From contig JAHJCL010000037.1 in assembly GCA_018813025.1 (NCBI GenBank), forward strand, positions 1 to 62,159: a stretch of DNA of 62,159 nt, in the 5' to 3' direction. The position numbers were made by a program, and so were the translations under genes. Positions 57,945-58,625 of this stretch are shown in pieces; the stretch's first letter is position 1; each line of letters opens with the position of its first letter. The notes under the pieces were generated by a model, which saw only the letters and a list, made by a program, of their open reading frames with translations, ran no database searches and had not been told where the DNA came from. The DNA is from Patescibacteria group bacterium (GTDB lineage: Bacteria > Patescibacteriota > Minisyncoccia > Minisyncoccales > DG-74-3).

Positions 57945-58625
57945 AGACGGGGTCTCACACAAGCGGTGGATCATGTGGCTTAATTCGACAACAAACGAGG
58001 AACCTTACCAGGGCTTGAAACGCTAATGAAATTCCGGAGAAATTCGGAAACTCCACAAGGACATTAGCCCAGGTGCTGCATGGTTGTCGTCAGCTCGTAT
58101 CTTGAGACGTTTGCTTAAGTGCACTAACGAGCGCAACCCTTGCCCTATGTTTTAAATGTCATAGGGGACTGCCTGAGATAATTAGGAGGAAGGTGAGGAT
58201 GACGCCAAATCAGCATGGCCCTTTGATGCTCTGGGCCGCACACGTGATACAATGGCCGCTACAATGAGTCGCGAACCCGCAAGGGGGAGCTAATCTCATC
58301 AAAAGCGGTCTCAGTTCGGATTGAGGTCTGCAACTCGACCTCATGAAGCCGGAATCGCTAGTAATCGCCAATCAGCTATGTGGCGATGAATATGTTCTTG
58401 AGACTTGTACTCACCGCCCGTCAACTCAAGTGAGTTGGGAATACCCGAAGTTCCCGCAAGGGACCTAAGGTAGATCCAATAAGAAGGAGTAAGTCGTAAC
58501 AAGGCACGGGTAGGGGAACCTGTCCGTGGATCATTTCATTTTATAAGTTTTGTCGACTACAGTTGAAGTCTAAAATTTGGATTTTAACCGTAAAGGTATT
58601 GGTCGAACATCTTTAAAGATCGGCC

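Follow-up and report, generated by a model that had tools for sequence, protein, structure and literature searches.

How are start codons chosen in a bacterium whose 16S rRNA no longer carries the anti-Shine-Dalgarno (anti-SD) core, CCUCC? The question is raised by a stretch of DNA of 62,159 nucleotides (contig JAHJCL010000037.1 of assembly GCA_018813025.1, from a Patescibacteria group bacterium), called the window throughout. A preliminary description of the window, made from its letters alone, held that the 16S rRNA tail after the conserved helix 45 reads UUUCA in place of this core and that the sequence as a whole points to initiation independent of Shine-Dalgarno (SD) pairing. We find that the core is indeed gone. 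Taken as a whole, the best explanation is that the anti-SD was lost, that the mRNAs carry no SD, that start codons are selected independently of the tail, and that the tail drifted after the SD of rpsU, the gene for bS21, had disappeared. We consider this account very probably correct.

The 3' end of the 16S rRNA

Because cmscan aligns positions 58529-58541 of the window, GAUCAUUUCAUUU, base for base with the Rfam consensus GAUcACCUCCUUu, the anti-SD core can be said to have been replaced by UUUCA at 58534-58538; the 3' boundary at 58541 is itself predicted by the model (RF00177). This alignment bears out what the preliminary description had read by eye. Its further statement that no CCTCC follows within about 150 nt also held: the motif has no match in 58401-58900, nor downstream of the 16S rRNA gene up to the ORF that starts at 58848. 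The whole genome (542 kb in 40 contigs, 95.7% complete) contains one rrs copy, and no second copy with an intact tail was found in it. A Logan contig from a DNA run covers 58502-58771 with zero differences, but that run is possibly the source sample and therefore lends no independent support. Loss of the anti-SD core from this genome's single 16S rRNA is thus real and confirmed.

RNA contigs from three metatranscriptomes of one study are identical to the 16S rRNA until about 58526-58531, with nothing from 58532 onward. Relatives have contigs with loose ends at 58531, a position through which the DNA contig continues. The contigs of these public RNA runs were unsuited to mapping the mature 3' end or to showing removal of the trailer.

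The 16S rRNA gene is a stand-alone unit that ends at a terminator-like hairpin (Table 1); no 23S rRNA gene lies downstream, and a protein gene starts at 58848. Across the order to which the genome belongs, GGAUCA and the downstream block of GUCGAC and hairpins are conserved, and the intervening tail is not. In this trailer block, 72.7% of the positions expected to pair do so, versus 60.6% in shuffles, and helix 3 reaches 86.9%, although the structure was derived from the window sequence itself and the counts are biased in its favor. RNAalifold, run on a MAFFT alignment of the trailer, had returned only four pairs, and the structure from the window sequence was counted instead. No Rfam family matched the trailer, which is probably a pre-rRNA processing element. 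The gene also carries insertions, one of them of ~0.7-0.9 kb, at which the Rfam match is split (56997/57706). This large insertion (~56997-57706) encloses a homing-endonuclease ORF and fits an intron-like element; such insertions are typical of CPR rRNA genes.

Table 1. Positions of the features discussed, in window coordinates
Feature	Position	Strand	Basis
16S rRNA gene, sole rrs	56053-58541	+	RF00177, 1245 bits, model positions 1-1533
LAGLIDADG homing-endonuclease ORF (LAGLIDADG_2), within the large 16S insertion	57075-57692	+	PF03161, E 4.7e-37
Helix 45, CACGGGUAGGGGAACCUGUCCGUG, intact	58505-58528	+	cmscan alignment, every pair standard
16S 3' tail, GAUCAUUUCAUUUUA, predicted extent	58529-58543	+	cmscan; mutually different AT-rich tails in relatives
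Conserved 3' trailer element, GUCGAC then two hairpins	58552-58625	+	alignment conservation and pair counts
16-bp processing stem, 3' half; partner at 56031-56046, upstream of 16S	58626-58641	+	sequence
Terminator-like hairpin and T-run	58668-58696	+	sequence, ORF list
ATGA stop/start overlap, example	15135-15138	+	sequence, ORF list
Further ATGA overlaps	38116, 39033, 44874, 45455		sequence, ORF list
prfB +1 frameshift cassette	20151-20176	+	sequence

Sequences before the start codons

The mRNAs of this genome were shown to carry neither an SD nor a replacement motif complementary to the new tail. Genes were called naively, as non-overlapping ORFs of at least 100 aa that start at their first ATG, which gave 467-482 genes. 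One of the 4-mers GGAG, GAGG and AGGA lies at -18 to -4 before 6.6% of 467 starts versus 14.2% of internal in-frame ATGs; in a 50-kb control from E. coli K-12, processed with the identical script, the figures were 47% of starts versus 5% of internal ATGs. E. coli became the control because relatives from the same class with canonical tails, tried as positive controls for the script, showed no SD enrichment. A test that does not depend on gene calls, in which the frequency of ATG 4-9 nt after an SD-like 4-mer is divided by its frequency at 15-30 nt, returned 0.96 for this genome versus 1.87 for E. coli. A cruder scan for 6-nt SDs before ORFs of at least 50 codons was discarded; it counts intragenic positions and fails to separate E. 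coli.

As for motifs that might match the new tail, TGAAA, GAAAT and AATGA, taken from its complement, are not enriched before starts. Duplexes of the observed tail with positions -22 to -3 are weaker than those in far-upstream, internal-ATG and shuffled controls. The preliminary description had read 17 starts of the window as lacking a GGAGG-like motif, and GGA, GAG and AGG are in fact absent from -20 to -1 of all 17, whose 20 upstream nucleotides hold 0-7 G+C. It had also named SD enrichment before starts as an observation that would speak against its reading; the SD-like 4-mers are instead rarer there than before internal ATGs, and, genome-wide, start regions form less stable duplexes with the observed tail than the controls. 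SD-independent initiation is thus supported by the depletion of the 4-mers, by the call-free ratio and by the weak tail duplexes.

What the starts do have in common is a composition and a lack of structure. Upstream of the 467 starts, G makes up 5-12% of the bases over -15 to -1, A makes up 55-58% at -6 to -3, and U is preferred at -1; the k-mers enriched there are AAUAA-like and peak at -10 to -6. Sequences of 40 nt fold with a mean energy of -1.8 kcal/mol at starts and of about -3.8 kcal/mol within genes. Those at starts are no more stable than their own shuffles, and GC content falls there from 0.34 to 0.22. AUG triplets are 2.4- to 3-fold rarer within 15 nt of starts, the upstream part of this deficit being partly inflated by the way in which starts were called. 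Pairing of the two CAU triplets of the tail with AUG was considered and dropped, given that -1 prefers U, that no complement of the tail is enriched, and that the tails are not conserved.

Gene packing would offer a second means. Among 368 pairs of same-strand neighbors, 71 overlap (32 of them by ATGA) and 104 more lie 0-15 nt apart; with 175 of 368 pairs overlapping or separated by at most 15 nt, coupling or re-initiation is available to about half of the genes. All five ATGA junctions listed in the preliminary description are present (Table 1). The genome also encodes a bS1 candidate of 356 aa with four S1 domains (G000:C36), short by comparison with E. coli S1, which has six. We propose that start choice would rest on an A/U-rich, nearly structure-free region around the start codon that favors A at -3 to -6 and is poor in competing AUGs, and that the four-domain bS1-like protein and re-initiation between overlapping or tightly packed genes may both contribute to it. 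Judging from these sequence features, start selection most likely proceeds by means that do not involve the rRNA tail.

Three routes had been put forward in the preliminary description: A-rich unstructured leaders, coupling and leaderless initiation. The first two are well supported, whereas the third would be at most a minority route. It is unlikely that this organism is mostly leaderless, with most of its transcripts beginning at or beside the AUG and 70S ribosomes binding them directly. In a test set of 187 operon-first genes, -10-like hexamers at the leaderless distance (-16 to -10 from the start) number 58, versus 41.9 expected, with a spike at -12, and single cases fit, such as the TATAAT found 4 nt before the ATG at 19417. 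However, this excess amounts to about 16 of the 187 genes. Further, about half of all genes overlap the upstream gene or trail it by at most 15 nt and therefore cannot be leaderless, and the A-rich signal at -3 to -6 implies that leaders get read.

The tail and rpsU among relatives

Anti-SD loss is an order-wide trait. The survey of the order covered 401 genomes, for which about 120 true 16S 3' ends are listed; CACCUCC occurs in three of the listed ends (G001:C25, G137:C98 and G042). The other listed tails are mutually different AT-rich strings, among which YYWCAUUUUA recurs and a few are near-ancestral (CACCUCA, CAUCUCC). The canonical tail of G001:C25 (122-172) belongs to a second 16S in its genome, on a small contig, and is 77% identical to the window 16S across a 231-base query (58330-58560); that of G137:C98 (119-169) sits on a small contig, at its end. 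Bin contamination probably accounts for both, and the tail of G042 looks native. Outside the order, the class has 32 canonical ends, 12 with UCUCC and ~49 without the core; about half of the class has lost it. Among genomes of other Patescibacteria classes, 74 of 75 have a canonical tail.

The state of the tail goes together with that of one gene, rpsU, which turned up in 145 of the 151 genomes of the class, the Paceibacteria. Of the class genomes with a canonical tail, 24 of 28 (16 of 18 families) have a strong SD before rpsU, mostly AAAGGAGGUG, as do 4 of 12 with a partial tail and 1 of 21 with a degenerate tail (1 of 16 families). Where CCUCC is retained, this SD is 6-11 nt long. A raw Fisher test of tail state against rpsU SD gives 7e-9, uncorrected for shared ancestry; the counts rest on non-independent kin, and family-level counts are given for this reason. 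Strong rpsU SDs were also present in all five genomes examined from other classes. In the canonical-tail classmates, a 6-nt SD stands before only 1.6% of the other starts. The pattern has misfits: G439, G527 and G500 have canonical tails without an rpsU SD, and G012, a member of the order, has a degenerate tail yet carries AGGAGG before rpsU. In the order of the window genome, 33 of 34 genomes, G042 among them, have no SD before rpsU. The rpsU of the window genome itself (80 aa; G000:C31:5610-5849), which is followed by a yqeY-like gene, has none in its leader. The Pfam bS21 model gave only 22 bits on this genome, under the cut-off, and the gene was accepted from relatives and its gene neighborhood.

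Canonical tails in this phylum do not imply widespread SDs. Eight canonical-tail genomes were sampled at 40-160 kb each with naive start calls, and seven were scored individually for the ratio of SD frequency at starts to that at internal ATGs. Within the class the ratios were 0.94 (G485), 0.60 (G475) and 0.23 (G542); in other classes they were 0.31 (G645), 1.46 (G589), 1.98 (G581) and 2.01 (G566); E. coli gave 9.0. The canonical-tail genomes sampled thus have little or no genome-wide SD enrichment.

Might the tail of the window genome keep a specialized job, pairing with one or a few mRNAs or serving 30S maturation? The recurrence of YYWCAUUUUA in several families of the order would be in keeping with this, as would the impaired rRNA processing that follows ablation of the anti-SD in F. 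johnsoniae (PMC13000453) and the specialized pairing of tail and rpsU in classmates. We nonetheless regard such a role as quite unlikely. A comparison of rpsU leaders revealed no complementarity between tail and rpsU in the genome or its order; within the order, tails pair with their own rpsU leaders at -1.9 kcal/mol versus -2.5 kcal/mol with the leaders of others, that is, no better. Further, the tails of the order are A/U-only at the extreme, and their length relative to the conserved trailer varies; both features suggest little constraint.

A role of the new tail, UUUCAUUUU, as a variant anti-SD, with a complementary motif on the mRNAs, is very unlikely. Such pairing does have precedents among other Paceibacteria, where variant tails covary with the rpsU SD: in G431, the tail AUUAUCUCUUUUCAAA matches the rpsU leader UUUGAAAAGAGAUAAU perfectly over 16 nt (-17.7 kcal/mol), and in G507 the tail UUCUCCUUUU matches a variant rpsU SD, AAAAGGAGAA. 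Chryseobacterium-type Bacteroidia are similar (PMC9976891). Against it stand the unenriched complement and the weak duplexes described above, the duplex of -0.5 kcal/mol (rank 14/17 and 21/22) that the rpsU leader of the window genome forms with that genome's tail, and the unlikeness of tails even among genera of one family. Finally, it is scarcely credible that the tail stems from a pseudogene copy or from an error of assembly or binning, or that a functional, CCUCC-bearing rrs sits in an assembly gap: the genome is a 40-contig draft and two related genomes do have canonical 16S ends on small contigs, but the G001 copy looks like a contaminant, the window 16S scores across the full model with helix 45 intact, degenerate tails are found in the ~120 assemblies listed for the order, which are independent of one another, metatranscriptomes contain RNA contigs identical to the window 16S, and sequencing error cannot produce mRNAs without SDs.

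Neutral decay of the tail after loss of the rpsU SD is the reading that we prefer. SD use may already have been weak in the phylum, the anti-SD being retained mainly for pairing with an unusually strong rpsU SD, as in Bacteroidia. The ancestor of the order would then have lost the rpsU SD, and the tail, unconstrained from that point, would have drifted to AT-rich sequence. G042, which keeps CACCUCC and has no rpsU SD, is cited for the rpsU SD having been lost before the tail in this order. Ancestral loss of the rpsU SD with subsequent drift of the tail is the simplest reading that we can infer from these distributions. The more general proposition, that Patescibacteria, like Bacteroidia, initiate largely without SDs and keep the anti-SD chiefly for regulating rpsU, with this order losing the rpsU SD first and its tail decaying neutrally afterwards, we would place midway between doubt and acceptance.

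The comparison with Bacteroidia can be made point by point. These “SD-blind” bacteria (Jha 2021, PMC7797042; McNutt 2023, PMC9976891; Naeem 2026, PMC13000453) share with the window genome the genome-wide absence of SDs. F. johnsoniae depends on the anti-SD both to translate rpsU, alone among its genes in having a strong SD, and to process its rRNA (PMC13000453; PMC9976891). According to PMC10798248, which cites Baez 2019, Bacteroidia start regions have low structure, A at -3 and -6, and few AUGs; all of these are found in the window genome. The canonical-tail relatives resemble Bacteroidia in that rpsU stands out with a strong, extended SD. Bacteroidia, however, retain an intact anti-SD, hidden under bS21, bS18 and bS6, whereas the window genome has lost both the anti-SD and the rpsU SD.

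Published precedents and the prfB cassette

The finding is real and its interpretation right, but it is already known for this lineage, having been reported in 2022. Tsurumaki 2022 (RNA 28:1041, PMC9297842) found CCTCCT in only 48% of the 16S genes of Parcubacteria, with losses that overlap the group lacking uL1, in which, the authors state, no SD helices are believed to form. A search of the 95.7%-complete genome with PF00687 gave no match for uL1, whereas 14 of 14 control genomes matched; rplA is missing from its usual place: on an intact contig (G000:C26:27042-30248), the gene directly after secE-nusG-rplK encodes a dCMP deaminase. The affiliation with Parcubacteria (CPR/Patescibacteria) is borne out by the nearest named records, which are Parcubacteria/Paceibacteria MAGs and Candidatus Paceibacter normanii, as well as by the 542-kb genome and the 16S with insertions. 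The trait counts as already known because PMC9297842 reports anti-SD loss in uL1-lacking Parcubacteria and this genome lacks uL1: lineage and trait are the same. The passages of that paper found on the motif give its presence or absence only; to this the present analysis adds SD statistics for the genome, the drift of the tail throughout the order and its link with the SD of rpsU.

Anti-SD-less bacteria known from elsewhere include Carsonella, some Mycoplasma, Blattabacterium and the Chryseobacterium group (Lim 2012; PMC6107228; PMC7782861). In such bacteria, anti-SD loss accompanies the absence of SDs and the loss of ribosomal proteins, and it clusters in lineages (Amin 2018, PMC6107228; Nikolaeva 2021, PMC7782861). 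The window genome displays the features used by Amin 2018: helix 45 is followed by a tail of ~13 nt without any CCUCC(U)-like sequence, no canonical or tail-complementary SD motif is enriched before ORFs, and the loss is common to relatives, with degenerate tails among the ~120 listed ends of the order. It also shares with these bacteria a small genome, lost ribosomal proteins and phylogenetic clustering of the trait. Unlike in the scattered insect symbionts and pathogens, however, the loss here takes in the entirety of a large order whose members are environmental (groundwater-type) bacteria, and close relatives document intermediate states.

We therefore regard the finding as a well-documented further case of a published trait in uL1-lacking Parcubacteria rather than as a new kind. 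Its value is that of a natural experiment, in which the 16S tail looks functionless throughout an order of CPR bacteria of free-living size. The class holds every intermediate: a canonical tail with an rpsU SD, a variant tail with a matching SD, a canonical tail without an rpsU SD, and a decayed tail. This range bears on the open question of why the anti-SD is conserved nearly universally even where SD sites are unused. If the rpsU reading is true, it would help to explain that conservation and would provide independent support, from a second phylum, for the model of autoregulation by bS21 and the anti-SD. In practice, gene callers and expression designs that assume SDs will misplace starts in these genomes. 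Both the co-variation of tail and rpsU across Paceibacteria and the hairpin in prfB, described below, are worth pursuing.

The prfB cassette of the window (Table 1) contains an SD-like AGGGGA. As in the E. coli-type prfB +1 frameshift, a G-rich element lies just upstream of a CUU UGA slippery stop at codon 22. Unlike in the E. coli type, this element forms the 3' arm of an mRNA hairpin of 6 bp that covaries and ends 4 nt before CUU: UCCUCU (20151-20156) pairs with AGGGGA (20161-20166), and a 4-nt spacer leads to CUU UGA (20171-20176). No such hairpin is mentioned in the F. johnsoniae prfB paper. Across 45 Paceibacteria sites, 81.5% of the helix positions are paired; shuffles reach 59.9% and slid controls 26-49%. 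The covariation score is 0.505 versus 0.163. We conjecture from this conservation that the hairpin may stimulate the +1 shift in cis, standing in for SD pairing. It is equally present in canonical-tail and degenerate-tail genomes; being independent of the state of the tail, AGGGGA is therefore no evidence of residual SD pairing.
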